Positions 2,672 through 21,094 are shown, numbered from the whole stretch's first letter. The stretch is 48,419 nucleotides of DNA, filler included, from Catajapyx aquilonaris (GCA_000934665.2; 2 parts of 2 records of this genome joined end to end with filler, not necessarily neighbours in it); one strand, 5' to 3'. The notes: a model not told the origin generated them from the letters alone. Numbers and translations are program-made.

Positions 2672-2751
2672 TATAGACATTACAAAACATTACTCCCATC
2701 CTATATCGACAAATGCGGGCCCTGATTGCGATATCAGGATTACAAGTGGGA

Positions 2752-4542
2752 TTACATTTTCTTCACCATTTCGACCGCAAGTCCCATCAAAGACGCGCCC
2801 ATTCCTCCGACAAGAATGAGGAAGGCTCCCTTCAGATTCAACCATGTGAGCTTGGTGGGTCCTTCCTTCTGACCCTGAGGGTCATCACTCCATCTGGTGT
2901 CCCTGGCCGAGTTCCAAGCCTTGAGGAATCCGGACAGGCGACTCATCCTCTGGTCCATCCCGATGGAGTGGTAGAGATGGATGTTCCTCTCGAAGGCCTC
3001 CGAATGGACGCTGTTTTTGGGGAAGGCCAAAGAGTACTGGAGGTTCACGTAGGCCTTTTTGGCCAACATAATCTTCAGACGACCATTCTGATCGTAGCAC
3101 TCGCGTTCCACCAGAGCAATACCTAGTCGATGACCTTCGGTGGTAATGCAGGCGTCGTCACCACTCACTACCAACCTGCAGATGTTTGTCGGACTGGGCA
3201 ATGGCCGGTACTTGGCGATTATCTGGATCAATACTTCCGGAATGATTTTTGTGTCCCAGTGAATTGACATGGTTTTAATGTCAGTGTCTTCCATGTAGAT
3301 GTTGAAATGAGAGTTGTTGACCAATGCTTCCAGAGTTCCAGGCAGCCTCTCCTTATCCGGATGAACAAGAATAGACAGCAGGTTGGTTTTATAGCCTACG
3401 CCTATTATCCAGGCGAATATGGTCCAGAACAAGATTGTCAATCTGAGAGTGGACTGGGCTGGAGTTGGAGGATACTGCTCCAGGAATATCCGGGCCATTC
3501 GACCGATCCCTTCCAAGCAGTTGTGCCGTCTAATCCCGGATATCAACCGGCTGTAAATGCCTTCAAAGGCTGTTAAAATAATACCGACTGTAATAACTGC
3601 AGTTAGAATGAGCACCCAAACTGTCTGTTGGTAAGGAAAGATGAAGACGAAAGGTCTCACTTCATCTCTCGGCAGACGAGTCACGAACGTCAATTTTCTC
3701 ATGTTGTAACTGTCTACAAAATCTAATCTGGAAGAGAGGCGGTATGACCTCGTCAGACTCCAGAAAAACGACGTGTCTCCAGTAATGACCTTTATGACCG
3801 CATTTCTGAGCTCACTGAGGTTGCTGTAGTCGACACCCTCAATGTCCCATGTGAAATTAAGTGCTTGCTGGAGAAAGCACATCATGTGGAAGGCGAAGGT
3901 CCAGCTGCTGCAGTTGGATGGAGATGATTTGTAATAGTACACGCCTTGCAAGAACTTCCCGTGCAGATCGTCGGCCGTGTCTGCAAACAAGGCTGGAGCA
4001 GGCAAATCAGGACCAATCGTTTCAACCACTGGTTTTCCTCCGTCACAAAAGTAGCACACTCTAGTGATCAGCATGTCGGGGTCGAAGTGCACCGCGATCT
4101 TGTACTTGACCTTTTGCAAGTGCGTCTCCAGCAAATGGTCACTGTCCCTCGCCCACACTACGAACCGATCTCTGGTTGGACGAATCTGGACTGACCTGTT
4201 GACCTGATCGAGTGTCGCGTCCAGGTTGCGGTCAAAGGTCGTGAGGAAGTGGACGGGGCAAGTGCCGGCTGACCCTTTTGGACTGGTGGACTCGAATCCA
4301 ACAATGGTCTGGTTATTGATGCCGAAGATGAGGGCGGGCCTTCCGATCAATGCCTGATCGAACATCAATTGTTGCAGTGTTTTAGGCAATACTTGTGCAT
4401 AGTCATGACCGATGACCAACGAGCAGAACGAGTCGATGTCGTCCAAAACGTGAGCCAGAAATTGCCCCACTAATTGAACCTTGGTAAAGTCACCCACAGC
4501 CCAACCGAGGAGCACCATCACAGTCACCAATCCGGTCTCCAT
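2752..4542 (-). CDS. Divergent ionotropic receptor (IR, iGluR-derived chemoreceptor family), intronless, 596 aa
   Basis: Single ORF with a hydrophobic N-terminus (METGLVTVMVLLGWAVG), S1 end SLTRSYRLSSRLDFVDSY, M1 PYQQTVWVLILTAVITVGIIL, pore loop ARIFLEQ, SYTANLAAF-equivalent GYKTNLLSIL and last TM LTWLNLKGAFLILVGG. Short N-terminal domain and very short C-tail, typical of divergent IRs. Confidence 0.88.
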   Translation of the reverse strand: METGLVTVMVLLGWAVGDFTKVQLVGQFLAHVLDDIDSFCSLVIGHDYAQVLPKTLQQLMFDQALIGRPALIFGINNQTIVGFESTSPKGSAGTCPVHFLTTFDRNLDATLDQVNRSVQIRPTRDRFVVWARDSDHLLETHLQKVKYKIAVHFDPDMLITRVCYFCDGGKPVVETIGPDLPAPALFADTADDLHGKFLQGVYYYKSSPSNCSSWTFAFHMMCFLQQALNFTWDIEGVDYSNLSELRNAVIKVITGDTSFFWSLTRSYRLSSRLDFVDSYNMRKLTFVTRLPRDEVRPFVFIFPYQQTVWVLILTAVITVGIILTAFEGIYSRLISGIRRHNCLEGIGRMARIFLEQYPPTPAQSTLRLTILFWTIFAWIIGVGYKTNLLSILVHPDKERLPGTLEALVNNSHFNIYMEDTDIKTMSIHWDTKIIPEVLIQIIAKYRPLPSPTNICRLVVSGDDACITTEGHRLGIALVERECYDQNGRLKIMLAKKAYVNLQYSLAFPKNSVHSEAFERNIHLYHSIGMDQRMSRLSGFLKAWNSARDTRWSDDPQGQKEGPTKLTWLNLKGAFLILVGGMGASLMGLAVEMVKKM

Positions 4543-5254
4543 GTCTGCCTTTCGTCCACTGTTTTTCCCTCATCCAATCGGACTGATTGTATACGAGCAT
4601 ATGGGACATCCATCAAATCTCTCAGAAGTGCATGAAAGAGACCTTTAAGAAAATGTAACCGCACAACAAATGACTGCACTTATCGTTATGGGAGTGCCCG
4701 CTTTTCCCGCCACAAAGTCAACATGAGAGTCGCTAAATGGATTTCCAATGTTTTGTCAGACTGTTACATCATATCGTAGGCGATACATAAGCAGTGCTTT
4801 TCCGACTCTTTCCATAGATCAAACTGCATTAACACGACAATGGTAGATGACGGCAGATTCAATCAATCTTCACATCGAACAACTACTGTCCAACTTGTAT
4901 AGAAACATACTTGAAGAAAATGTCACGGCAGAACAAGAGTGACAGCGCTTCACACTGGAAATAATTGGAGTGCCCACTTCGAATAAGTCTATGAGGGTCG
5001 ATACTTAAAAGGTTTCTATTGTTGTGTGACTTGTAATTTGACATCGTGCATTTGTAATAATTATTTGCCCCACGATTGACCCCATTGAGAGGTCATCGCT
5101 CTTTTAGGGGGAACACCACAATATTTTCCATTTTTCTTGTGATTTTCTTCAACTCCGGGCAGGGAAGAAAGGACTATGGGGTCGGGATTGGGATTTTTGG
5201 GAGGATGAGACGCGGGTACTAGTGCAATCAATGTCTGAAACTAAGTCATGTGCA

Positions 5255-5498
5255 GGGTCGTCTCTGATGGCTTCGTCTCGGGTGGGTTTCCTTGGGACTA
5301 ACCACCCGGGGGAATTAACAAAATGACCATAGCAACGACATTGCACTTGCACTTTGCACATCCTCTCCCAGTCACTCTCCCAGTGGGCCCGGGCTCTTCG
5401 TTAAAGGCTACAGTATGTATGGTACGACAACGGTACAGTACAATAAAGGTCTGTGCTACATAGCCTACCCTCTCTAGTCTAGGTGAAGCACTACTCGG

Positions 5499-5576
<78 letters not shown>
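5255..5576 (+). mobile_element. 5'-truncated SINE (family B) with (ATT)n tail
   Basis: Shares body and core (ggcttcgtctcgggtgg...cattgcacttgcactttgcacatcc...gggcccggg) with the copies at 37575-39465 and 47862-48210; (ATT)n tail at ~5499-5576. Confidence 0.7.
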
Positions 5577-6396
5577 GAGTGCGTTCACATACTATACAGA
5601 AAATCAGTTACTTAACCGGTATTGTTGTGTAACATAATTATGCTGCACCTTCGAGTAACCTTGACCAGATGCGAATAATGACATATCCATATCAATGAAC
5701 CAAGAAAGGTTGATCTGTGCAGAATGTGACAGCATGACATGCATTGTTTGCTTACTCTGTGCCCTATACAATATATCAGGGTTTTACTTGGATCTGACAC
5801 AATGTTCATTGCAATTAATATTACCGTGATTATATCACGTAGTACTTAGGTACTAATCTTCACGCATAGATGGCGCATCTATACTTTACACACTACTCCT
5901 GCCACCATCAGGTCATGCGAGAGATAGTGGCACTATCAGGTCGGACAAACATCAGATGGAGGGACGTAGTATTTTATATGCATGGTATTTACAGGGGGAG
6001 TTCTTATTTTCTCTGTAGTAATACTTATACTTCGGTCACGAGTCAGGTGGGGAAATCACTTCCCACTATTACATCCGTTCTAATTATTTTGATACGGGTA
6101 TGAATTAATTCCTCCTGTATTATTGGGAAAGTCGGAAAATACTGTATGTCGCTTATTAATGACGTTCAGAGGCGGGATGATTCAGGTGAGTCCCATTGTC
6201 TCTCGCTGCCCATTGTCGCTTGTGTGTTAATGAGAATATTTAGAGCTTGACAACCAAATGGAACTGGCTTTTTGTTTGTGCATATCCGCACTGTTTTGTG
6301 TCGTTGTATCACTTGTTGTAGATTGCGGTTGGCTGGAAGACCGTCCTTTGAATATAACAGTGCAGAGTGCGTGATACATCAAGACGTGCCGCCAAG

Positions 6397-7571
6397 ATGG
6401 GGTACAATTTGTGCAGTGGTGACTTCCAACTCGCGATGAACAAGTTCACTGGTCTGGTCCACCCTCACCTGGCCCTTGTCCTGTGCATATCGGGCTCTGT
6501 GTCCAACATCCTCTGCATCGTAGTCCTGTCCAAGAAGAGGATGGTGTCCTCCATCAGCACCATCCTGGTGGGACTGGCAGTGTCGGACCTTCTGGTGCTG
6601 ATGGCCTACATGTGCTTCGCCATTATGCAGGAGATGTACGGGGACAAGGTCGAGTACGCACTGCAGGGGACGTCCAAGCACTTCTCACTGGCAGAGTATC
6701 AGATGATCAACACAATGTGGTTCAACAAGGTACTGTCACAACAAGGCACATGGTCATGAAATATACAAAGTTCGGCTTCTCTTTTTGAGTGCAGGTGATG
6801 CACGCTGTGTCCATCTGGCTGACCGTGACCCTGGCAGTGTGGCGATACCTCGTGATGTGTTGGCCATACAGAAGCGAAGATTGGTGCAGCCAGACCAGGG
6901 CCAAGTGGACAGTGGTCAGCGTGTACGTCGCTGTGGCCATCCTTCACACGCCTTACTACTTCATATACCATGTAGAACCTCGCGGGTCATACTTTCACAC
7001 TGGTGCGATGTACAGCGATGTGACCAAGATATTCATACCGAGTGTTGAGGCCATGTTCTGGATCATGGCCATCTTCGTGAAGCTGATTCCTTGCTTGTTG
7101 CTGTCCATCTTGACCCTGAGGCTAGTCTGGGTATTGGTCGAAGGCAAGAGGAGAAGAAGGTACTTAAGGAACAATTTAAGCTGCTCAATAAGCGTAGGTA
7201 CTAAGAATAAATGCGAAGTGGATCTCAAGATGGAGAGGACAACTCGGATGGTGATATTGGTCCTCTTTGTCTTTTTGGTCACCGAGTTTCCAGGAGGCAT
7301 TCTGGCTCTTATTGGTGCCATCAGAGGGTTGGGATATTTAAACGATTGCTATTACTACATGAAAAGACTCCTGGATGTGATAGTGTTACTGAACAGTGCC
7401 ATCAACTTTGTTCTCTACTGCACGATGAGCAAGGAATTCAGGGACACCTTCAGACAACTGTTTGTTCTCAAGGGAGTGTGTTGCAAGAAGTGTTTTTCCT
7501 TCATTAGAACAAGGCTGTATAGTGCAACAGTGGTTGATGGCACTGGAAGTACAGAGTCGCCTTCCGTTTAG
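6397..7571 (+). CDS. GPCR-1: myosuppressin-receptor/DMSR-like class A GPCR, 369 aa; exons 6397-6729 and 6795-7571
   Basis: ATG at 6397 (MGYNLCSG). 65-nt GT-AG phase-0 intron 6730-6794 joins FNK|VMH. Motifs GLAVSDLL, SIWLTVTLAVWRY, KLIPC, ERTTRM, TEFPGG, NSAINFVLYCTMSKEFRDTF match the myosuppressin receptor/DMSR family. Confidence 0.9.
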
Positions 7572-8853
7572 ACAGAAGTGATGACCATTTCGTGTCATAT
7601 TTGTGATAAACGGGTCCTGCAGTGAACACAGAAGATGCGACAGCTCCTAAACCCCGGTGGAGTGCAGTCCCCATATTAGTGTTTTCATGGAAAGCAACAT
7701 CATTTGAAGACAAGATTTGCAGAAGGATATGTGCTGTTACAGCAAAGAGACAGATGGTATACTAAAACATAATATTATCACAATGTATGAAGTAGTATTC
7801 AGAGTAGGCTATGTAATTTTTATACATTACACAGTCATTGAAAAGGGTGTGGTGAGAAATCCTTAACGGATATCGTCTCGTGTCACATTATAATTATTAC
7901 TCAAGGTCACTCAGGTCATAATACTGTGACCAAGGTAAGCCCATGCAACTCTTAACACCATTCGATAAAAAATATATAATTATTTGAAATGGTTTGAGTT
8001 ATAAAAAATTGCAATTTGCAGATAGAACCTTATGGCTCCGAAAATGTGCAATGAAGTATAATTTTAGCGGTGCAGATAGAACCTTTTTGCCCTGTATGAT
8101 TGCAAAAATGTAGCATTAAAGGTGTTCTAATAAATTATTAATTATTACAATAATATAATGACTATTAATAATGTTACTACAGTTAGTCTTTGGGTTGAAA
8201 ATCTCATTCATCTTTAACCACCTCATACGTAGTAATGCCATCGCACTCTCTGATCTTTGCCTTTGCACGAGCACGTGTCTGAAATAGGAGTAAGCAAGAG
8301 TAAAAACGCTCAAGAAAATGGGATTTATCTTCTCTCTTGTCCTTTAGTCATATAACCAGTCAGCCACATCTGCATCCACTTGAACATGTATGTAATAATT
8401 TATTATTACAATATCCTTTTTCTTATTCTCAGGGATGTCGCTTGAATTAAACAAGATTGGCAAATCACGTGAGCGTTTATTTAATTTAATTAATTTAATT
8501 AATTTTTAGTTTCTTTTCATTTAAATTCAATTCAATTTAAATTCAAATTTCTTTTAATTTTCAGAAGTACTCCCTAAAACGCACAGCAGTGTATTTTCTA
8601 AAAGAATAGCTACTTTTAAGGAAGTTAATTATGTCAGTAAAACTGAGGTATGGTACCAGAATGGCGCAATAACTTTGATCATTATAATTAACTGAATATA
8701 TCAGAGACTAGTGTTATGCATAATCTGAATAAACACTAACCTGGTTGCTATATAGAGCCCGGTTTCTTCATGATCATCATGACTGTCTTCTGAGTGGTTT
8801 TCCACTTGAGTGGCCATGTGAAATATCAATAGGATGACTTGTGGTGATGGTGA

Positions 8854-10017
8854 CTATTTCTGGTTGTGTCCAGCGCAATTGCGTTTATTCGATTCCTTCA
8901 TTGGACAGGTGAAGCACTTATTGCGACACACTCCTTCTGGAACGAACGTGTCTTTGAAGGTCCTCCTGAAATCATTGCTCATCGAACAGTACAATAGGAA
9001 GTTGACAGAGCTGTTCAACAGAACTATGGTGTCCAGAAGCCTCGAAAAGTAAAGGTAGCAGCTGTAGAAGTAGTTGTGGCCCCAAATAACGACGAGCAGA
9101 GTGACTATTCCTCCTGGAAACTCGGTGACCAAAAAGACGAAGAGCACAACAACCACCATCCTCGTGGTCCTGTCCATCCGGCGGTCAACCTCGATATCAC
9201 CGTGGACTGACCGGTTCCTGCTGTCCATCAGAAACTTCCTGATCTTCTTGGCTTGGAAGAGTTCCCAGACCAGCCTCAGAGTCAGGAGGGTCAGGAGGAT
9301 GCAAGGAACCAGCTTGACCAGCACTCCAAGGATAAAGTAGTTGACCAGAATGCTCATGTCAAACCCACCGGTTGTGACATTGACCATTGACCTCCTGAAG
9401 TTCACCTCGTAGTAAGACCCACGATAGTCCACCTCGTACATGAAGCAGATAGGGATGTGCACCAGTGTCACGCATATGTACGTGCTGACCACTGTCCACT
9501 TGGCCCTCCTCTGGTTGCACCACTCTTTGCTTCTGTTGGGCCAACACACGACGAGGTATCGCCACACAGCCAGGGTCACGGTCAGCCAGATGGACACCCC
9601 GTGCATCCCCTGGGAAAAGTGGAATAATCACCCGTGTGTCCGAACCAATATTATGCTTATGCGAACAGTACTAAATAAACTTCACACCCTGTTACAAACG
9701 ATGTTGGCGATCTGATACACAGTCACGGAGTAAGATTTGGATATTCCTTTCAGTCCGTACTCTGCCTTGTCTCCGTACATTTCTTGCAAGATGGCGAAAC
9801 ACAAGTAGGACACCAGGACCAAGAGATCAGCCACGGCCAGTCCCACCAGGATGGTGCTGGTGGGGGACACCATCCTCTTCTTGGACAGGACGACGATGCA
9901 GAGGACGTTGGACACCGATCCAAAGGAGCACAGGACAAGAGCGAGGTGAGGATGGACCACACCAGTGAACTTATTCATCATTAGCTTGAAGTCACCGCTG
10001 CACAAATCGTACCCCAT
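8854..10017 (-). CDS. GPCR-2: myosuppressin-receptor/DMSR-like GPCR, 361 aa; exons 10017-9688 and 9609-8854
   Basis: ATG at 10017 (MGYDLCSG). 78-nt phase-0 intron 9687-9610 (CNR|GMH) at the same position as in paralogs. VWRY, KLVPC, DRTTRM, TEFPGG and NSSVNFLLYCSMS present. Confidence 0.9.
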
Positions 10018-10586
10018 CTTCGTTCGTGTTTACACTGTCCACTGCTGTCCTCAAAGGACAGTCTTTCACTCAATCCCAACTGGCACCAAGTGATTCAAAA
10101 AGACAAACAAATGCGTGTTTTATTTCGTAATAAAAAGCCAAGTGTAATTTGCCTATCAGTTATCATAAAACGGATGCTAGTCAGGGACAAACAATGGGAC
10201 TGGAACAGGAAGTCACCTGTCCGGATAGATGTAGTCTTGACAGATCTCGTAACAAAGGACTCGTCGTACTTTAAAATGCGGAAACAGCACTACTTATGGA
10301 GTGATTAAGTCGTCATTTGGCACTACACTGACGCATTCAAGTCACATTTTGTATATACGAACTGACGCCATATTTATACGGAGGACGAATTACTTGTATT
10401 GCGTGATCTGAGATGATTATTAATATTAATAATCTCAATATCATTCACATTAATGACACACGGTTCCGTTGTGTGGAGGACGCGACTTTTACGTGACATG
10501 CATTGCGTCACTTGCACAAGGCTGGTGAATGCGATGGAGCTCAGTGCACGTCCAGACGCTTCTCCAGAAGGACGCTTCTTCCTAAA

Positions 10587-11723
10587 ATGGACGTGTGCAT
10601 TGATAGGTTCACCCACCAGGAGGATTCCTACTGCAGTCCAAGACTCATGTCATGGTTGGAAGTGTTTGTGACTGACCACAACCCCTGGATATCACTGATG
10701 CTCTGCGTCTTCGGCTGTGTCTGCAACCTCCTCTGCATCTTGGTGCTGACCAGGCGGAGGATGCTGACCTCCACTGGAACCATCCTGACCGGACTGGCCA
10801 TCTCTGACCTCTTGGTCCTGGCCTCCTCCCTGCCACTCTTCGCCATGCAGCTGAATGAAGACGAAAGGGACAACTATGCATTGTATGCGGCGTCTAAATC
10901 ATACTCACGGGCTGCCTACGCGATTGTCGCCTTCATCTTCTTCAAGGTGATGTTCCCTCATAGTCTACTGAGGAATATTGTTTGGCTCTTTTTACTCCCT
11001 CTGTAGGTCATGCATGTTGTGTCAGCCTGGCTGACCTTGACCCTGGCTGTTTGGCAGTACATGCTGGTGTGCTGGCCCATTCCGAGCAAACAATGGTGCA
11101 CCCCGCAGAGGGCCAAAGTGACGGTGGTGGCAGTGTACGTGTGCATAGTCCTGCTGCATACCCACTTCTATTACGGCTATGAAGTGGACAAGAACCAAGA
11201 CTATTACATTCCGGGCATGCGGAACCGGTTCATAGACGAAGAGACGGGGGGACTGGACTTCACGTATGTGGCTGACCTCTGGGTGACTGGCGTGTTGGCT
11301 ACCCTGGTCCCTTGCATTTTGGTCACCTACCTGGCTGGGAGGCTGGTCTGGACCGCGGTCGAATCGCGGTGGATCAGACGTGATGGTGTCGCACCGGACC
11401 AGACTTGGCTGGTGGTGTCCGTCCTGTTAGCATTCCTGGCGACTGGTCTTCCTGATGGCGTCGCCTCTCTTTTGTTGGCACTCTGGGGGCCCTTCTTCTC
11501 ATTTGAATGCGCTCTGACCAAACTTCTGGAGACGATCGTCCTTCTGAACTGCGCCGTACACTTTGTGCTGTACTGCGCCACGAGCTTCGAGTTCAGGCAG
11601 ACCTCGAAGGAACTCTGGAGTGCCAAGAAGGACTGCTTGTCCTGGCTACGAACCGCGATCGAGACGCGGCAGAAGGACGACCAGGCCGTGACTTCAGACG
11701 CGGTCATTCACATGATCGTGTGA
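10587..11723 (+). CDS. GPCR-3: highly divergent member of the array with altered signalling motifs, ~358 aa; exons 10587-10946 and 11007-11723
   Basis: ATG at 10587 (MDVCIDRF). 60-nt intron 10947-11006 (FFK|VMH). Seven hydrophobic segments, but WQY instead of WRY, TGLPDG instead of TEFPGG, NCAVHFVLYC instead of NSAINFVLYC, and a short ICL3. Confidence 0.85.
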
Positions 11724-11894
11724 GAACCCAAAGGTCAACGAGAATAAGACCCACAGCACAGAACATGTTTAACCAATCAACTTACTATTGAAAGTATTTT
11801 TTTGCATATAGCAATTAGCAAATAAGTAATAATATCGCAATTATTATTTGCACTCTGTTGTTTCCAGTGTCAGATATTGTGTTAGATAATGCAA

Positions 11895-12250
11895 TTAACA
11901 TAAATTATATTCTGGGTGCATTTGCATACAATGGAAGGCCCGTTTTCATGCACCGAGAGACATACCGAGGTTTTGATTTTTTTTTTTCATGATTTAAAAC
12001 AAAAAAATGCACCAACAAAGGCCGAATTATTGTTACAAGGTAACGTGACCTCGGAGTAATTACATTGAATAATGCTGCACAGACCGTACCACATCTTGAC
12101 AGTGATGTTTGTGATTGTGCGAACCACTTTTTTCCCCTGTTGCATAGTCCTTCAATGCTTCCGTCCATTGAACTTGTGCAACCAACCACAACATGTGGCA
12201 ATAAATGATTGAACTTCAGTTGACAGATCGGTCAATGTCACACGCGGAAA
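11895..12250 (-). pseudogene. Ghost GPCR locus: 5' flank, ATG and about 7 codons, and 3' flank of a GPCR-7-like gene with the CDS deleted
   Basis: 11895-12070 aligns with the GPCR-7 3' flank (~17050-17225; shared catacaatggaag and gagagacataccgaggtttt). 12084-12250 aligns with the GPCR-7 start and 5' flank (~18518-18700; shared gcaaccaaccacaacatg and cagttgacaga). Minus-strand ATG at 12094 reads MWYGLCS, like the paralog starts MGYGICS and MGYDLCS. Confidence 0.75.
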
Positions 12251-12371
12251 GGCGGGACTTCACAGCTCTGGATGACATTATTTTGGGTCCTGGTCTGCGC
12301 CAAGAAGGACCCCAAGGAGGGCCACGCAGTTGCTAAGTCATATCCGGAGAGGACAGACGTTGCGCACAGAC

Positions 12372-13460
12372 ATGGGTTACACCAACTGCAGTGATATCTC
12401 GTTGAGATTGACCGAAGGGTACAGCGCAGATGTCCACTCCTTCTGCGCCCTAGTGACCTGCGTGTTTGGGTCAGTGTCCAGCGTCCTCTGCATCGTGGTC
12501 CTGACCAGGAAGACCATGGCTGCTTCCTCCACCAACACCATCTTGTTGGGTCTGGCCATCTCGGACATGGCCGCCATGCTCTCATACGCGCCACTGGCAG
12601 CCTTTGCAGTCGCTGGAGAAAAACAACTCTACATTACCAAAGGATTGTCCAAAGAGCATTACCAAACGGTGTACTGGATATTCCAACGTGCATTCTTTAA
12701 GGTACGTACTATACCAACTGTTCTTTTCACGTTATCGTCGGGGTTGTTGTTGTTATTTTTACTAATATTATTAATTTACCAGGCGATGCACGCGATCTCC
12801 GCTTGGCTGACGGTGACCCTGGCCATTTGGCGTTACCTGGTTGTGTGTTGGCCTTACCAGAGCAAGGACTGGTGCAGCAAGGGAAGGGCCAGGCTGGCTA
12901 TGGTTTCCGTCTACGTCTGCGTCATCCTCATGCAATCTCCTCAGCACATCAGATTCAAAGCGGTGTCAGATGGCCCTTACAACTACTATGCCGCCCAGTG
13001 GAACCCCAGTTTGGACAAATCAGAAGCTTTCTTCCCTGCCAGAGAATTGACCTTTACTCTCTTGATGCACATTGTCCCCTGCCTGTTCCTCATCTGTCTT
13101 ACCTTAAGACTGGTTCTGGCCCTGGTGGAGGCCAAGAGGAGGAGACGTTACCTGACCAACACCCAGGGTCCTTCCCAGTTCGACAGGCAGATGGACAGGA
13201 CCAACAGGATGGTCACGGCCGTCCTCTTCCTCTTCGTCGTCACAGAGGTTCCAAAGGCCACACTCCGCCTCCTTGGGGTAACCAATGGAAGCACCATCAA
13301 AGACAACATCTGTATCTTATTTTTGAAAAACCTTGTGGACCTCTTAATCTTGCTGAATAGTGCCATCAACTTCCTATTGTATTGTACCATGAGCCGGCAG
13401 TTCAGGCGGACATTCAAGGAGCTCTTCTTGCCGAAGAAACAGTGTTGGACACAACAATAG
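12372..13460 (+). CDS. GPCR-4: divergent myosuppressin-receptor/DMSR-like GPCR, 335 aa if spliced; exons 12372-12701 and 12783-13460
   Basis: ATG at 12372 (MGYTNCSD). 81-nt GTACGT...CAG intron 12702-12782 at the conserved position (FFK|AMH); it is in frame and stop-free, so the ORF track reads through it. IWRY, HIVPC, DRTNRM, TEVPKA and NSAINFLLYCTMSRQFR present. Confidence 0.87.
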   Translation: MGYTNCSDISLRLTEGYSADVHSFCALVTCVFGSVSSVLCIVVLTRKTMAASSTNTILLGLAISDMAAMLSYAPLAAFAVAGEKQLYITKGLSKEHYQTVYWIFQRAFFKVRTIPTVLFTLSSGLLLLFLLILLIYQAMHAISAWLTVTLAIWRYLVVCWPYQSKDWCSKGRARLAMVSVYVCVILMQSPQHIRFKAVSDGPYNYYAAQWNPSLDKSEAFFPARELTFTLLMHIVPCLFLICLTLRLVLALVEAKRRRRYLTNTQGPSQFDRQMDRTNRMVTAVLFLFVVTEVPKATLRLLGVTNGSTIKDNICILFLKNLVDLLILLNSAINFLLYCTMSRQFRRTFKELFLPKKQCWTQQ

Positions 13461-13670
13461 TGCGCTTATTCTAGTCGCATGAATTTGTCATAAAAATTTG
13501 CACGTGTTATCTATTTTCCACATATTTTACATGGAGAATAATGAGATCAAAGCTTTCACATGAAATATTTCGTTTCCTGTGTGTTGTACACTATGCCAAT
13601 TACTGTATAAATAATGACAAAAAATGAGTAATGGTGCATAATTTTGCACGACACTTTACGTGTACTTGAG

Positions 13671-13806
13671 TGTCCACTCCTGCTGTGCCCTTGTGACCTG
13701 CGTGTTTGGGTCAGTGTCCATCATCGTGGTCCTGACCAGGAGGAGCATGGCCTCCTCCTCCACCACCAACACAATACGGCTGGGTTTGGCCATTTCCGAC
13801 ATGGCC
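13671..13806 (+). pseudogene. Partial duplicate of GPCR-4 exon 1 (TM1-TM2)
   Basis: Reads VHSCCALVTCVFGSVS---IIVVLTRRSMASSSTTNTIRLGLAISDMA, against GPCR-4 VHSFCALVTCVFGSVSSVLCIVVLTRKTMAASSTNTILLGLAISDMA (12431-12582). No homologous start or exon 2. Confidence 0.85.
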
Positions 13807-15129
13807 TGCACTTGTGCACCAGCAGCACCTATCAGACCACAAGATTCCACTTTGCTCAACACTCTGCTGGCCACCGTTTGGATTGTCACTGTAGGTCAGG
13901 ATGTCACTAAAATCAATGCAGATTGTAGGCCTGGCTGGCATCGGACTTTCTCCACAACAATAACTATCGTTGGACGCATTGTTTGTCCAGCAAATGCACT
14001 TCCTGCAACCGATTCCTTTTGGAATGAGCAGTTCCTTGAAAGTTTGCATGAACTCCTTGCTCATGGTGCAGTAAAGCCCAAAGTTGATGGAACTGTTCAG
14101 AAGGACAATCACGTCCAGAAGTGTTGTCAGGTAAGTGTAGCAGTCGTTGAAGTAGCCGTACCCACGTATTGCAACCAGAAGAAGCAATATTCCACCAGGA
14201 AATTCGGTGACCAAGAATACAAAGAGGACCACCACCACCATCCTTGTGGTCCTCTCCATCTTGCGGTCCACCTCGGTGGTTGTCCCCTTGTTTGGACATA
14301 TGTCCCGCCTACTCCTCTTGGCCTTGACCAATGCCCACACCAGTCTCAAGGTCAGGAAGGTCAGGATCAGGCAAGGAACCAGCTTCACGAAGATGGCCGT
14401 GATGCACAAGGTGGCTAAGACGGTGACTCCGAATTTCAAGGTGACACTGCTGTACATTGACCGGACAAAGGAATCTTCGTAGTATGACCCGCGAGGTGCC
14501 ACCTGGTAGACGTAGTAGTAAGGGGTGTGCAGGATGGCCACAGTGACGTACACGCTGACCACTGTCCACTTGGCCCTGGTCTGATTGCACCAATCTTTGC
14601 TTCTGTTGGGCCAACACACCACGAGGTATCGCCACACTGCCAAGGTCACAGTCAGCCAGTTTGAGACCGCATGCATCACCTGTACACGGAAAGAGAAGTC
14701 AAACTTGACAACACTGCCCAGCCCAGCCCAAACAAACAAACAAACAAAATAGAGATATAAATGAAGTCCACTTTTGAGGACTTTTGATGAGCTTCATACC
14801 TTGTTGAATATGTCGTTGAAGAGGTAGTACACAGCCAAAGAGTAAGACTTGGACGTGCCACTCAGACCGTACTCTACTTTGTCCCCGTTGGTCTCCTGGA
14901 AGGTCGCAAACATGAGGTAGGCCATCAGCACCAGAAGGTCCGACACTGCCAGTCCCACCAGGATGGTGCTGGTGGGGGACACCATCCTCTTCTTGGACAG
15001 GACGACGATGCAGAGGACGTTGGACACAGAGCCAGATATGCACAGGACAAGGGCCAGGTGAGGGTGGACCAGACCAGTGAACTTGTTCATCCGGAGCTTG
15101 AAGTCGCCTCCGCAATACCCGTATCCCAT
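13711..15129 (-). CDS. GPCR-5: myosuppressin-receptor/DMSR-like GPCR with extended C-tail, 432 aa; exons 15129-14800 and 14679-13711
   Basis: ATG at 15129 (MGYGYCGG). 120-nt phase-0 intron 14799-14680 (FNK|VMH). VWRY, KLVPC, ERTTRM, TEFPGG and NSSINFGLYCTMS present. Confidence 0.88.
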
Positions 15130-15422
15130 TATGCTGAGCCAGAACAGTTGTCTTCTCAGTAAGGCATGTTGCGAGAGATTAAAACGGGTTCGCAACGCCT
15201 GAAAAAAAATTGCACACAAAGCGAATGAGAGCACATTGCGTGAAGAAATAGTTGCATAATAGGTATAGTGTCAGAATAATAAGCTGTGTCCATCGGAGTA
15301 TAAAGTGATACATCCGACTATTTACAACGCAGAAATTTGGCATAACCTTGGCACAATAAATATTTCTGAAACACTGAAACACAAAATTCATGCACATGAA
15401 ACACTTGTTTGCTGAAAGAACT

Positions 15423-15502
15423 CACCAGTCTTTGGTTATGTTGGGCCAACATATACCACGAGGTATCGCCACAGGGTCACAGTCAGCCAGAGGCATCTCC
15501 TG
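15423..15502 (-). pseudogene. Degenerate relic of a GPCR exon-2 start (TM3/ICL2)
   Basis: ttgggccaac...accacgaggtatcgccac...ggtcacagtcagccag matches the WLTVT..WRYLVVCWPN region of GPCR-5/6 but carries deletions and frameshifts. Confidence 0.75.
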
Positions 15503-15611
15503 TCAAGAAAAACTTTGATGAAACTATGCGCAGTTGCATAGAGAAATACGAGTTGGACACAGCAGTGTACACTTTACAGTACATGGTGTGAAAGTACTAA
15601 CCTGGCAACTA

Positions 15612-16880
15612 CTATCCAGATTCACCAACTTCACTGTCTCCTCTTCCAGCATGTTCTCTGCAGTACCCGTTGTCACAAAGACTGCGCGAAATTGTCAAAA
15701 CGTAAGGCGAGTCTGTACTTCCAGTGTCATTAACATCATGTGCGAGAGTCAGCCTTGTCCTAATCCAGGAAAATATATTCTTGCAACACTCTCGCTTGGG
15801 AACGAACACTTCCCTAAAGGTGTCCCTGAATTCCTTGCTCATCGTGCAGTAGAGAACAAAGTTGATGGCACTGTTCAGTAACACTATCACATCCAGGAGT
15901 CTGGCCATGTAGTAGTAGCAGTCGTTGAAGTATCCGAATCCCCTGATGGCAACGAGAAGAGCCAGAATTCCTCCTGGAAACTCGGTGACCAAAAAGACAA
16001 AGAGGACCACCACCACCATCCTGGTCGTCCTCTCCATCTTACGATCCACTGCGGAACAACTGCTCGTTTCTTCGGTTATTGAGCAGCTTCTGGTATTCCT
16101 TATGTACTGTCTAGTCCTCTTGGCTTCGACCAGTGCCCAGACCAGCCTCAGGGTCAAGATGGACAGCACCAGGCAAGGAATCAGCTTCACGAAGATGGCC
16201 ATGATCCAAAAAGTGATAATGACAGTGACTTGAAATGTTTTGGTCACATTGTTGTACATCGCATGGGAGTAGTAGACCTCGTAATAGGAACCCCGCGAAG
16301 ACACAACGAAGACGTAGTAGAAAGGAATGTGCAGGATGACGACAGCGACGTACACGCCGACCACTGTCCACTTGGCCCTGGTCTGGTTGCACCACTCTTT
16401 GCACCTGTTGGGCCAACACACCACGAGGTATCGTCCCACTGCCAGCATCACAGTCAGCCAGATGGACACGGCGTGCATCACCTGCACACGGAAACAAATA
16501 AATCGTCACTCTCACTTGTAACAATACCGAGAACGGTGGCGATGAGGTACCTTATTGAACACCAGGTTGACCAGATGGTATTCCGCTCCGAAGAAGTACT
16601 TTGACGTACCCTCCAGGCCGTACTCTGTCTTGTCCGCGTACACCTCCTGCAAGATGGCGAAGATCAAATAAGCCGCCAGAACCAGAAGGTCCGCCACAGC
16701 CAAGGCGACGAGTATTGTACTGGTTGGCGACACCATTCTTCGTCTGGTCAGCACAACAATGCAGAGGACGTTGGACACAGAGCCGAACGTGCACAACACT
16801 ACGGAGAGGTGTGGGTGGACATCCGATGTGAAGTTGTCCATCAGGAGTTTGAAGTCACCGCTGCAGATTCCGTACCCCAT
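15612..16880 (-). CDS. GPCR-6: myosuppressin-receptor/DMSR-like GPCR, 399 aa; exons 16880-16551 and 16481-15612
   Basis: ATG at 16880 (MGYGICSG). 69-nt phase-0 intron 16550-16482 (FNK|VMH). VGRY, KLIPC, ERTTRM, TEFPGG and NSAINFVLYCTMSKEFR present. Confidence 0.9.
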
Positions 16881-17256
16881 GTCCGTGTGTGTATACCGGT
16901 ACACTTCTACAAACTGCACTCAACTAATGTCCTTCGTCTGTTTGTTCCGTTCTCAACTCAATCCCAGCTTTGATTGATAGACACTAAAATAGTGATGACA
17001 CATGCTGGATAATAATAACAGGGTGTGATTGGCTTTCAACGCCTGAATAATCAAATTACCATAAATAATGTCGGTGCATTAACATACAATGGAAGCCTCG
17101 TTTTCCTGTGCACTGAGAGACATACCGAGGTTTTTAAACTAAGCTGAAGTGACACTAAGCACTATTTACGTAGGACAAATTGTTACAACGTGACCTGCGA
17201 GTAAATTACATTACATTGGAAAATGTGTACCAACCTGACCAATTATTATTGAACTA

Positions 17257-18527
17257 TTAGACTCTAGTTTCGGAATAATCATCACTGTGGTCTTCGCCTC
17301 TTGGATAGGGACTGCACGAAGTAATTTCAATGTCACTGGTCATGTCCCGGGTTGTTAGAACAGAACTCGTCCAGATTCTGATTGGTCCACGTTTTGGCCA
17401 GTTTCTCATCCAGGACAGACATATCTTGCAGCATACTCCGTTGGGAACAAACAGGTCTTTAAACGTGTACCTGAATTCCTTGCTCATGGTGCAGTACAGG
17501 ATGAAATTAATGGCGCTGTTCAACAGAACTATGATGTCCAGCAGTCGTGTCATGTAGTAATAACAATCGTTGTAGTACGCGATCCCCCTGATGGCAACGA
17601 GAAGAGCCAGAACTCCGCCTGGAAACTCGGTGACCAAAAAGACGAAGAGGACCACGATGACCATCCGGGTTGTCCTCTCCATCTTTCGGTCCACATCATC
17701 CGACTCACTGCTGGTATGGCTGACAACTGAACGTCTCCCGAGGTACCTCCGCCTCCTCCTGGCCTCGACCAGTGCCCAGACCAGCCTCAGGGTCAATATG
17801 GAGAGCAACAAGCAAGGAATCAGCTTCACGAAGATGGCCAGGATCCAATAAGTTGCTGCAACACTTCTTCCTTCAAATGTCTTGGTCTTGGTCACCTCCA
17901 TTGGGTTGGAGTAGTACACTTCGTAGTATGACCCGCGAGGTAGCACTTGGTACACGTACACGTAGTAGTAAGGAGTGTGGAGGATGGCCACAGCGACGTA
18001 CACGCTGACCACTGTCCACTTGGCCCTCCTCTGGCTGCACCACTCTCTGCTCCTGTGAGGCCAGCAAACCACAAGGTATCGCCACACTGCCAGGGTCACG
18101 GTCAGCCAGATGGACACGGCGTGCATCACCTGTACACGGAAAGAGAAGTCATACTTTTCATGGCATTGTTGTAGCAGAGTAGTACCTGGTTAAAAATGGT
18201 GTTGATCAGTTGGTACTCTGCCAGCGAGAAGAACTTGGATGTCCCCTCCAGTCCAAACTCTGCCTTGTTCCCGTACATCTCCTGCATGATGGCGAAGCAC
18301 ATGTAGGGGATCAGCACCAGGAGGTCCGACACGGCCAGTCCCACCAGGATGGTGTTGGTGGGGGACACCATCCTCTTCTTGGACAGGACAACGATGCAGA
18401 GGATGTTGGACGCAGAGCCCAATACGCACAGGACAAGGGCCAGGTGAGGATGGACCAGTCCAGTGAACTTGTTCATCATTAGCTTGAGGTCACTGCTGCA
18501 CCGACCGTATCCCTTGCCGTACCCCAT
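17257..18527 (-). CDS. GPCR-7: myosuppressin-receptor/DMSR-like GPCR, 404 aa; exons 18527-18186 and 18129-17257
   Basis: ATG at 18527 (MGYGKGYGRC). 56-nt phase-0 intron 18185-18130 (FNQ|VMH). VWRY, KLIPC, ERTTRM, TEFPGG and NSAINFILYCTMS present; ends in ETRV. Confidence 0.9.
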
Positions 18528-19799
18528 CCTGACAGCGATGCGTGTGCCTTTTTTTCTGCAATGTCCCCCATTGTCCTTCGACAAGCCCGTCCGTTGAACT
18601 TGGGCAACCAACCACAACATGACGCAATAAATTATTGAACGCGGGATTTAGGGTGGGACGCCACAGCAGTTGACAGACCGGCCAATATGTCGCGCAGGAA
18701 GTGTCGATTCGAGTGCATGACCGACTTTTTAAAACAATACGTAAATAATCCGACAAGCAAGCAAGTGCCATTGTGTAAAGGACTCTCAGGTGGCTCCTAT
18801 CGGGCTAATTTTCACATACACTGTACTCACGATTATATCCGGGAGCGGATTATCCGTGCTTCGCCAAAAAAGGAAATCAAAATCCGAAAAAATGAGTCGA
18901 ATTTTCGTCCCACTGCTAGATACTTCTATGTTAGAATCGCGATTGAATTCCGACCCAGTTTGTTTGTTGTCACCTCACAGACTGGGAGGACTGGCCGTGG
19001 AGGGAATGATCTACATTGCTGCAAAGTCAGGGCGACAAAAAGTAATCATAATTATTCCTTCTGCAGATCTTGGCCACACTGTGTTGTTGCTTGCACAAGC
19101 CCGGAAATATTGGCAGAAAAGAACACCGGATTTTCGGCAAGGCCAAAGCTCAGGCCATTACCCGCAAAATAAACGAGACATTTGATTTTTGTGCATATCA
19201 TTTTATGTGCATGTATGAAGGATTGCATATATAACTGAACTTCAGTACATTAACATAATGATCAGTAAGCTTCACGGGTACAATGTGAGGAAGAACCGCA
19301 TAATGAACAATATTTGGGATATAATCAGCTAATAAAACTACTCATAATAAACATGAATGCTAACAGGCATAAGTGATACCATAGTACTACATTTAATTAT
19401 ATGTGCGTCCGTATTGTTTGACCTCTGTGACCAAATAAATTGAACACATTCCAACTGATCACTCTGCATAGAATAATCTCGTGAGCATCCAATTATGTGA
19501 AATCATTTCAGATAATCCCTCATAAGAGTTTCATTCTAGTTTGCATCAGTTACATTATGGAAACTTAAATGCACCAGAGGAACTTCAGTTTTAGTGGTCG
19601 AAAATCAATCAAGTTGCTTTACCTCATAATAATTACCACGTTATGATGACACTGGAAACATCTCGCACAAGGGTTACAGGAAGCATGATATTGTTGAACA
19701 GTAATGTATGTAGATTTAACTGTCTCTAAAAGTACTAAGCTTTAGGAATCAGAAAACTGCCTGATACCTATAGTTCACGGTGAATTTTACGATGTCATC

Positions 19800-20696
19800 C
19801 TAAATGTGCTCGGAGGCCCACTCCATGCACTTTCTCTTCAGATAGGGGCAGTTGAAAGTGTTGGCCTGGTCCAATGTCTCCTGAAAGTTGCTCGTGTCCA
19901 GCTGTCTAGCCAAGTGCACCTCGCACATTTCCTTCAGGTCCTGCAGGTCGTACTTGTCTGCCGCCTGCAGAAGAGACGATGCCATCGGGCCTAGTTGTCC
20001 AGGCTCTTTCCCTGTGTACACGTGATGGAGCATCTCCCTGATCAAGTCGGAGCTGAAGTCGGGCATGGTCACCTTTCCAGTCTTCTTCTCCAGCATGTCT
20101 CGCTCGAACATGGCTGCGAAGACGGGGCTCTTGAGGGACAGTATGCGACGGTGGGCAGTCACTTCAACCTCGTCGTTTCCCATCAGAATGACGTCGGGGT
20201 CGCCCCCCAACTCGTACAACTTCATGTCGTCAGGGAGTGCGGGAGCAGGAAGTGAATATTCCCGCCGTTTCACGTCTACACTTATTGAAAGGTTAATAAA
20301 TATTGACCCCGATACCGTGTCATGTTCGCAGAAGATACTAATGTAATTCCAGACGTTGTCTGAAGTTGTTTTCTGGAAAGACCTGTTACCCAAACTGACA
20401 AACCTTTCCGAGGCAAAGAGATAAATGCACCCTACTGGTGGATCTAAAACATTAACGGCGCCCTTGGGTGGTGGCGAATATCGAAGGTAGATCGACAAGG
20501 CACTATCATTACCACCACCCCTCACCTTGTCCAGCCACATATTCCATTCTCCAGGAATTCCACCGAGTGAGATGCGAGGTGAATGCAGCCTCCCAGATGT
20601 GTCGCGGAAAGCGTCGATTTTCCACTCGATGGAGAAACCGAAAGAGTCATCCTTAGTAGGGCGGCCCGTGAGGATGCGCCCAGTTGTAGTGGCCAT
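19800..20696 (-). CDS. Intronless MATH-BTB protein (SPOP/roadkill/TDPOZ-like Cullin-3 adaptor), 298 aa
   Basis: Degenerate MATH-like N-terminus (FSIEWKIDAF...WNMWLD...LSIYL), clear BTB (DVIL...AHRRILSLKSPVFAAMFERDMLE...EMLHHVYTG) and 3-box/BACK start (LLQAADKYDLQDLKEMCE...LKRKCMEW). Confidence 0.88.
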   Translation of the reverse strand: MATTTGRILTGRPTKDDSFGFSIEWKIDAFRDTSGRLHSPRISLGGIPGEWNMWLDKVRGGGNDSALSIYLRYSPPPKGAVNVLDPPVGCIYLFASERFVSLGNRSFQKTTSDNVWNYISIFCEHDTVSGSIFINLSISVDVKRREYSLPAPALPDDMKLYELGGDPDVILMGNDEVEVTAHRRILSLKSPVFAAMFERDMLEKKTGKVTMPDFSSDLIREMLHHVYTGKEPGQLGPMASSLLQAADKYDLQDLKEMCEVHLARQLDTSNFQETLDQANTFNCPYLKRKCMEWASEHI

Positions 20697-21094
20697 GGTG
20701 CTACTGAACTGAAATTAGATGAACAATACCTCTGTAATTGGGCCTGGAACACCTTAATTCGCAAACTCGCAAACACACAGCATGTTGGCTAACGTGCATG
20801 CAATACTCTTCAAAATGGCATATTATTAAAATAATAAGGACGGCAAATTCCGTCATTATCAATCCACTTCAGGTATTGGGTCGTTCAGCAACAGTGCTGG
20901 TCACCAAAATGTTGCATTCATTTTTTGAGAACATGGGTAGAAATTAGTTTTTATTAGAGGAAAGACGGTATAACTAGGTCCACTTCAGAGTTTACGACTG
21001 ATATTTAACTTTTAACGCACATAGCAATTTCCAATTACATAAGTTATTGCAAATGAAAACAAAAGTGAGTGACAGACATTAAGACCAAAATTAA

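Follow-up and report, generated by a model that had tools for sequence, protein, structure and literature searches.

Why would an arthropod genome carry seven copies of what looks like a neuropeptide receptor gene side by side? The question is raised by a stretch of DNA from Catajapyx aquilonaris, 48,419 nucleotides (nt) long with filler included and here called the window, in which seven genes predicted to encode class A receptors of the G protein-coupled kind (GPCRs) span positions 6397 to 18527. As judged from its sequence, the array is a lineage-specific, locally duplicated, and gene-converting subfamily of the myosuppressin receptor-like (MsR/DMSR) type, in which the signaling core is preserved and the outward-facing pocket is remodeled. 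We put at roughly 55% the probability that the function of the array is the reception of endogenous peptides other than, or besides, canonical myosuppressin. A first-pass annotation of the same DNA had proposed that the array was an independent co-option of a neuropeptide receptor for the sensing of external cues, and that proposal is weighed below.

Seven intact genes with one shared intron

The window DNA is of eukaryotic, arthropod type, with a G+C content of about 44% and trinucleotide microsatellites. Stop-to-stop open reading frames (ORFs) between 6.3 and 18.7 kb resolve into seven exon pairs, and all 14 match the Pfam models 7TM_GPCR_Srw and/or 7tm_1. For the second exon, Srw was the best Pfam model in each of the seven genes (E values of 1.8e-10 to 4.9e-28), and 7tm_1 matched with E values of 1.1e-7 to 1.3e-14. 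The genes, G1 to G7, follow one another in the strand order + - + + - - -, are separated by gaps of 119 to 1,282 bp, and encode proteins of 335 to 432 amino acids (Table 1). Each has two exons and a single GT..AG intron of 56 to 120 nt, and the intron lies in phase 0 at the identical alignment position in all seven, within the third transmembrane helix (TM3) and directly 5' of a conserved MH(A/G/V)(V/I)S. Reading frames are open and splice sites are intact throughout. Thus, two claims of the first-pass annotation, seven intact paralogs in mixed orientation within about 12 kb and one common phase-0 intron, both stand.

Pairwise identity among the copies ranges from 37 to 73%; G1, G2, G5, G6, and G7 are mutually 58 to 73% identical, and G3 is the most divergent member of the array. 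G3 has two candidate starts, and the upstream ATG at 10587 is the likelier because it restores an N-terminal Cys found in the other copies. The intron of G4 is in frame and contains no stop codon.

Five public runs contain the stretch, four of which are DNA runs of one sample; the fifth, X5, is of unrecorded kind, and none is recorded as RNA. In X5, a contig of 625 nt runs directly from 10944 to 11005 and leaves out 60 nt bounded by GT..AG; the omitted piece is exactly the predicted G3 intron, and the same joint was absent from the contigs of DNA run X1 over 2700 to 18700. The X5 contig supports the G3 splice model and carries no tissue information. No meaning can be read into the gaps that X5 leaves over G1, G7, and stretches of other genes, and summed contig depth (for example, 645 over exon 1 of G4) is not a copy number and was not used as one.

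Membership in the myosuppressin receptor-like family

When exon 2 of G6 was used as a query, the best named matches were "dmsr-1-like," "sex peptide receptor-like," and "FMRFamide receptor" proteins of scorpions, priapulids, insects, springtails, and molluscs, at 33 to 42% identity. Automatic protein names are unreliable, and for that reason an Anopheles match, P0014, was itself used as a query. Among its relatives were "Myosuppressin receptor [Rhodnius prolixus]," "DmsR-1 [Drosophila busckii]," "MsR1 [Drosophila pseudoobscura]," and "myosuppressin receptor 1" of Glossina and Lycorma. The insect group around P0014, whose members are 50 to 60% identical across orders, is the true myosuppressin receptor orthogroup. 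When 1.84 billion cluster representatives were searched exhaustively by phmmer, 3,834 proteins were returned at an E value of 0.001 or lower and 55 at 1e-30 or lower, the best of which was only 43% identical over the matched stretches. Finally, the nearest solved structures were those of peptide receptors, namely, neurotensin receptor 1 (E value of 1.9e-8) and the opioid, TRH, GPR139, and orexin receptors. The Pfam matches, the dmsr-1-like matches, the grouping of P0014 with Rhodnius MsR and Drosophila DmsR-1/MsR1, and the common motifs described below all point to G1 to G7 being members of the MsR/DMSR family of class A GPCRs, as had been annotated.

Whether the seven genes form one group was examined in two trees. 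FastTree, with 213 proteins, placed them in a single long-branched clade, the neighbors of which were a mealybug protein and a group with amphipod, shrimp, and lobster proteins, including "putative myosuppressin receptor V [Homarus americanus]." A profile search with the FastTree proteins and the window exons added decapod, stomatopod, ostracod, insect, and chelicerate members. The second tree, of 70 rows, was made in IQ-TREE under LG+C20+F+G4 by posterior mean site frequencies (PMSF), with a short search and SH-aLRT support only, and was rooted on lophotrochozoan family members; the trees were without true sex peptide receptor, FMRFamide receptor, and nematode DMSR or srw references. Support in the PMSF tree was 96 for the arthropods, 90 for a pancrustacean set of 52 rows, and 100 for the window clade, which sits on a stem of length 1.38. 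The mealybug protein, P0278, which FastTree had made the sister of the array on a branch 2.9 long, was not recovered in that position by the PMSF tree, and the pairing was treated as long-branch attraction. We note that the PMSF tree also contains a second insect clade that includes short Drosophila proteins and may be of the CG13229 type.

We conclude that the seven copies descend from one ancestral gene. The first-pass annotation had raised the alternative that the copies are orthologs of separate known receptors, but they fall in one clade with support of 100 and are not such orthologs. The single clade, the mixed orientation, and two relics (see below) also bear out local duplication accompanied by loss.

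A conserved core and a remodeled pocket

What the copies share with their relatives lies mostly in the core. Family motifs were derived here from 51 relatives and not from a published definition, and the array and its relatives have in common LAVxD in TM2, (A)(V/I)WRY at the DRY position, xxPC in TM5, TEFP in TM6, and NSAINFxLY in TM7; a Cys-Tyr pair in the third extracellular loop (ECL3) is common to the array and pancrustacean relatives only. The set is complete in G1, G2, G5, and G7, and the activation motifs proper (WRY, TEFP, and NSAINFxLY) are kept by four to five copies. G3 reads WQY, TGLP, and HF (HFVLY) and lacks R3.50, E6.48, and N7.49, while G6 has GRY for WRY, and in G4 position N1.50 is Ser and TEFP becomes TEVP. 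Thus, the annotated conservation of intracellular motifs is accurate for four of the seven copies, but G3, G4, and G6 deviate. The N-termini are indeed very short, with 26 to 40 residues before N1.50, but insect myosuppressin receptors are similar at 33 to 77 residues (75 to 102 in crustacean relatives), and shortness is not peculiar to the array.

What distinguishes the copies from one another lies mostly, though not exclusively, on the outward side. Variability was scored by region of the seven-helix core as amino acid identity among the five closer copies (G1, G2, G5, G6, and G7). The most variable parts were ECL2 (45%), the top of TM3 (48%), and the third intracellular loop (ICL3; 50%), with ECL3 and helix 8 at 58% each and ECL1 at 64.5%. 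The first-pass annotation had listed ECL1, ECL2, and the top of TM3 as highly variable; the description fits ECL2 and the top of TM3, but ECL1 is only moderately variable, and ICL3, ECL3, and helix 8 vary as much.

Comparison with relatives places the losses in the same part of the receptor. In 45 arthropod relatives, 87 columns are at least 85% conserved, and a column was counted as kept when the residue was present in at least five of the seven copies. By that measure the array keeps 58 of 87. On the outward side it keeps neither of the 2 columns at the top of TM3, none of the 3 in ECL2, and 2 of 5 in ECL3; toward the core and the inner side it keeps 6 of 7 in TM1, 9 of 11 in TM6, 9 of 12 in TM7, and 2 of 2 in ICL2. 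At the top of TM3, all 45 relatives have a His, in place of which G1 to G7 carry, in that order, N, N, A, Q, N, N, and N. The pocket residues of canonical myosuppressin receptors (the TM3-top His; Tyr, Ser, and Leu in ECL2; Phe-Phe and Gly in ECL3) are not retained as a set in the array. The loss of family-conserved residues at the top of TM3, in ECL2, and in ECL3 makes a change of ligand likely.

Purifying selection and gene conversion

By the Nei-Gojobori method, the ratio of nonsynonymous to synonymous divergence (dN/dS) lay between 0.21 and 0.58 in all 21 pairs, with dS values of 0.52 to 1.95. The array is under purifying selection, and the dS values indicate that the copies are old. By region, pN/pS was highest in the C-terminal tail (0.76) and in TM4 (0.73), followed by ECL2 (0.59), the top of TM3 (0.44), ECL3 (0.34), and ECL1 (0.32). 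Thus, positive selection in the extracellular loops, which had been suggested as a check on a chemosensory role, was not seen, as no ligand-contacting region had a pN/pS above 1 in pairwise Nei-Gojobori comparisons by region.

Nucleotide identity between copies is mosaic. G1 and G5 are 94 to 97% identical over TM1 to TM2 and 59 to 74% identical in ECL2 and ICL3. G1 and G6, in turn, are 91 to 96% identical over TM7 and helix 8 and 93% identical over TM5 but 69 to 74% identical over TM1 to TM2. ECL2 is 46 to 76% identical in every pair. The mosaic marks gene conversion between copies, with ECL2 spared, and the low synonymous divergence of the conserved parts is likewise attributed to conversion. 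We note that in one contig of DNA run X1, G7-like sequence up to 17887 is followed, after 37 letters without a match, by G5-like sequence from 14481, and both break points fall in the ECL2 coding part. The contig appears to be an additional mosaic copy or haplotype that has an ECL2 piece of its own.

Relics and C-terminal tails

Three relics had been annotated among the intact genes, and two were found by tblastn and blastn. Relic 1 resembles G4 at 72% amino acid identity by tblastn (E value of 9.6e-15) and at 81% over 145 nt by blastn, and relic 2 is 75 to 82% identical in nucleotides to six of the seven genes. A third candidate, at 19584 to 19723 on the minus strand, was rejected, as its tblastn E value of about 1 is at chance level and blastn gave no match.

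The C-terminal tails also carry signs of change. Beyond the stops of G1 (7572 to about 7628, with homology to the G6 tail) and G2 (8853 to about 8740), resemblance to the C-terminal tails of G5, G6, and G7 goes on. Both tails were therefore cut back by new stops. The tail of G5 is long, giving a protein of 432 amino acids compared with 335 to 404 elsewhere, and reads antisense through relic 1 at 13711 to 13827. About 40 residues at its end match G4 exon 1 read in antisense as well. Rather than a conserved domain, the long tail is probably the product of reading on into the remnant of a dead gene.

What the receptors may bind

How the array might function can be outlined from the pattern of conservation and loss. 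The copies would act as ordinary G protein-coupled receptors, with the ligand seated in an outward pocket made up of the top of TM3, ECL2, ECL3, and TM6/7. Because the clade has replaced pocket residues that are conserved in all other arthropod members, its ligands have probably shifted from canonical myosuppressin. They would most likely be other endogenous peptides, probably of RFamide type or unknown, and individual copies probably prefer different ligands and are probably expressed at different sites. G3 may be an atypical signaler or a gene in the course of being lost, though a G3-like spliced sequence exists. Expansions that may serve endogenous peptides have precedents, by analogy, in the 16 receptors reported from Caenorhabditis elegans and the five reported from lobster nervous tissue.

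Several observations weigh against reception of other endogenous peptides. The lost pocket residues fit a switch to nonpeptide or external ligands equally well. A six-frame scan of the window for the RFamide precursor motif RFG[KR] gave a single match, out of frame within a neighboring ionotropic receptor-like gene. Because of gene conversion, pairwise dS, simple selection tests, and the order of branching within the array cannot be relied on, and site-model tests of the codeml type would be biased as well. Within 382 nt of exon 1, the X5 contig that supports splicing of G3 departs from the window by 28 letters and 6 gaps, and it may therefore derive from an allele, another paralog, or a retrocopy. 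Finally, the PMSF tree leaves the array clade in a polytomy with the canonical insect myosuppressin receptors, the second insect clade, a malacostracan MSR-V clade, springtail genes, an ostracod gene, and two unnamed groups, and in an approximately unbiased test a topology that unites the array with the canonical insect receptors was not rejected (log-likelihood difference of 11.6; p = 0.235). The copies could therefore still be the lineage's own myosuppressin receptors.

Were that so, G1 to G7 would be a set of co-orthologs of the canonical receptor, divided among themselves by tissue or by signaling properties, a division that has been suggested for the lobster receptors. Most copies do carry all of the activation motifs typical of myosuppressin receptors, and the five putative lobster receptors, with their different neuronal distributions, are consistent with a division of this kind. 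The array has, however, lost extracellular residues that every other arthropod subclade retains, the deorphanized insect group included, and it loses them completely at the top of TM3 and in ECL2. Moreover, its stem branch is long, and identity to an insect receptor is 35% where insect orders differ among themselves by far less. We consider it unlikely that the copies are still simply myosuppressin receptors.

Chemosensation was the explanation favored by the first-pass annotation, in which G1 to G7 detect external cues such as peptides, pheromones, or others. A tandem, birth-and-death layout with relics would suit such receptors, as would the loss of family-conserved extracellular residues, the peak of diversity in ECL2 and at the TM3 top, and the sparing of ECL2 by conversion tracts. 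There are also proposed parallels elsewhere, in class A chemoreceptor expansions (PMC11886862), in orphan GPCRs of decapod sensory organs (PMC8177520), and in the reported relationship of the nematode srw family to peptide receptors. Just seven copies are visible, however, plus two relics in this window, the selection values include no region above 1, and the age of the copies tells against a fast-turnover repertoire. The ionotropic receptor neighbor is one gene. Moreover, the C. elegans members that have been deorphanized are reported to bind endogenous peptides, the lobster copies are reported from nervous tissue, and the introduction to PMC8177520 states that no crustacean GPCR has been shown to be a chemoreceptor. 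We conclude that chemosensory co-option is unsupported, and we regard it as improbable. Less probable still is a more elaborate form, in which the array is an arthropod chemoreceptor or pheromone-peptide GPCR family derived from a myosuppressin-type receptor and gene conversion homogenizes the core while each copy keeps a private pocket of ECL2 and upper TM3 for its own external ligand.

That the array is simply decaying, with most copies nonfunctional, is highly improbable, for despite the two relics, the absence of three microswitch residues from G3, of the W before R3.50 from G6, and of N1.50 from G4, and tails of G1 and G2 that stop short relative to those of G6 and G7, all seven frames are open with intact splice sites, dN/dS is well below 1 in all 21 pairs over considerable synonymous divergence, and a spliced G3-like sequence exists.

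Our preferred reading thus remains that the copies receive endogenous peptides, whether instead of canonical myosuppressin or besides it. If the ligands did change, the locus would be a compact natural experiment on how a conserved neuropeptide receptor gains new specificities, with seven copies that have one signaling core, differ mainly in ECL2 and upper TM3, and still exchange sequence. The array also shows that not all arthropods hold to one or two copies in the myosuppressin receptor family, and it offers seven defined targets for deorphanization. As it stands, the locus is an ordinary lineage-specific receptor expansion and not evidence of GPCR-based chemosensation in arthropods.

Neighbors of the array

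Table 1. Coordinates of the receptor genes, relics, and ionotropic receptor-like gene in the window
Feature	Position	Strand	Exon 1	Intron	Exon 2	Product or description
IR-like gene	2752-4542	-				Intronless single ORF; 596 aa from first ATG plus stop
G1	6397-7571	+	6397-6729	6730-6794 (65 nt)	6795-7571	369 aa
G2	8854-10017	-	10017-9688	9687-9610 (78 nt)	9609-8854	361 aa
G3	10587 or 10647-11723	+	to 10946	10947-11006 (60 nt)	11007-11723	358 or 338 aa
G4	12372-13460	+	12372-12701	12702-12782 (81 nt)	12783-13460	335 aa
Relic 1	13671-13827	+				G4-like exon 1 piece (TM1 to TM2) with deletions; overlaps 3' end of G5 on opposite strand
G5	13711-15129	-	15129-14800	14799-14680 (120 nt)	14679-13711	432 aa
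Relic 2	15423-15492	-				70-nt TM3/ICL2 piece of exon 2; frameshift, then stop
G6	15612-16880	-	16880-16551	16550-16482 (69 nt)	16481-15612	399 aa
G7	17257-18527	-	18527-18186	18185-18130 (56 nt)	18129-17257	404 aa

The gene upstream of G1 is of the ionotropic receptor (IR) class, an intact intronless gene with a channel domain of the ionotropic glutamate receptor (iGluR) type. Residues 315 to 590 match Pfam Lig_chan (E value of 4.9e-8; score of 33.3 against a cutoff of 30.8), and the ten nearest Atlas clusters are arthropod IR/iGluR types (0.96 to 0.98). Its start codon and that of G1 are 1,854 bp apart, and the two genes are divergent, in agreement with the annotated placement of the array about 1.9 kb from an intronless IR. 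The first-pass annotation had gone further and suggested that the IR and the array might be coregulated. Coregulation is unsupported, however, because there is a lone IR gene and because the spacer consists in part of a dispersed, high-copy repeat (4836 to 5369; summed contig depth of about 8,765 in DNA run X1, compared with about 30 to 150 in most other bins) and an (ATT)26 microsatellite (5499 to 5576). We note that the only X1 contig covering the 3' part of the IR gene, at 2977 to 3261, differs from the window at 24 listed places in about 285 nt, which reflects either high heterozygosity or a close IR paralog elsewhere.

Beyond G7, a 304-amino-acid ORF on the minus strand at 19800 to 20714 has a BTB/POZ domain (E value of 3.8e-20) and a weak match to BACK_BPM_SPOP and is possibly an SPOP/TDPOZ-like gene. 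With a gene of another kind on that side, the array lies wholly inside the window. Farther out, near both window ends, pairs of nearly identical ORF translations occur on opposite strands at 1356 to 2592 and 44857 to 45606 and suggest a dispersed element of about 1.2 kb that is present twice, in inverted orientation. Finally, an ORF translation at 35829 to 36371 on the minus strand resembles an immunoglobulin-type domain exon following a poly-Asn run.

Comparison with known systems

Expansions of class A GPCRs have been proposed as chemoreceptors in Lophotrochozoa (PMC11886862), where, as in the array, tandem clusters are reported that have no one-to-one orthologs; the main text of that paper contains no mention of myosuppressin, DMSR, or Srw. 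In decapods, orphan GPCRs are reported to be enriched in chemosensory organs (PMC8177520), with MSR listed as a neuropeptide receptor only. Candidate status rests on expansion and, for the decapod receptors, also on expression in sensory organs, and neither paper deals with the myosuppressin receptor-like family. The srw genes are described as the nematode chemoreceptor family nearest to peptide receptors, with srw-like genes in insects and molluscs, in a 2014 paper that also states that no srw gene has been shown experimentally to be a chemoreceptor. Neither a tandem myosuppressin receptor-like array nor a chemoreceptor family derived from such receptors was found for any arthropod in the literature searched, subscription journals and supplements lying outside it.

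Closer parallels come from the receptor family itself. C. elegans is reported to have 16 myosuppressin-like receptors, DMSR-1 to DMSR-16, of which the deorphanized ones answer RFamide peptides, some of them promiscuously. Like the array, they would be a lineage-specific expansion of the same receptor family. In the lobster Homarus americanus, five putative myosuppressin receptors with differing neuronal distributions are reported to have been cloned from nervous tissue. MSR-IV and MSR-V are given as 32 to 37% identical to MSR-I and are said to group with the Drosophila orphan CG13229, which is reported not to respond to myosuppressin. The lobster thus resembles the array in having several divergent members of the family within one pancrustacean. 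Relatives of MSR-V (P0275; QNH74783.1) were among the neighbors of the array in FastTree, but the PMSF tree does not join them; MSR-V and the array both have a Cys at the start of ICL2. In contrast to the array, the lobster receptors keep the His at the top of TM3 and have N-termini of 81 to 102 residues. The array is in tandem, while the lobster paper is silent on genomic arrangement.

The canonical insect receptors remain the standard of comparison (Drosophila DmsR-1/CG8985 and DmsR-2/CG43745 and those of Anopheles and Rhodnius; rows P0014, P0208, P0218, and P0199). They have the same Pfam signature as the array, Srw followed by 7tm_1, and, as in the array, the motifs LAV(A/S)D, (A)(V/I)WRY, xxPC, TEFP, the ECL3 Cys-Tyr, and NSAINFxLY together with a short N-terminus, and the array falls within the arthropod family to which they belong. 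Identity between the two is nevertheless 35% over 79% of exon 2, compared with 50 to 60% among insect orders, and the array has lost features that the insect receptors keep, namely, the TM3-top stretch FH(x)(H/N)-F(x)Q and the conserved residues of ECL2 and ECL3. One or two myosuppressin receptors had been given as usual for insects, and insects are indeed reported to have one or two (two in Drosophila and one in mosquitoes), but the norm does not extend to the lobster with its five putative receptors or to C. elegans with its 16. Where canonical insect myosuppressin receptors come in one or two copies, the array has seven in tandem.

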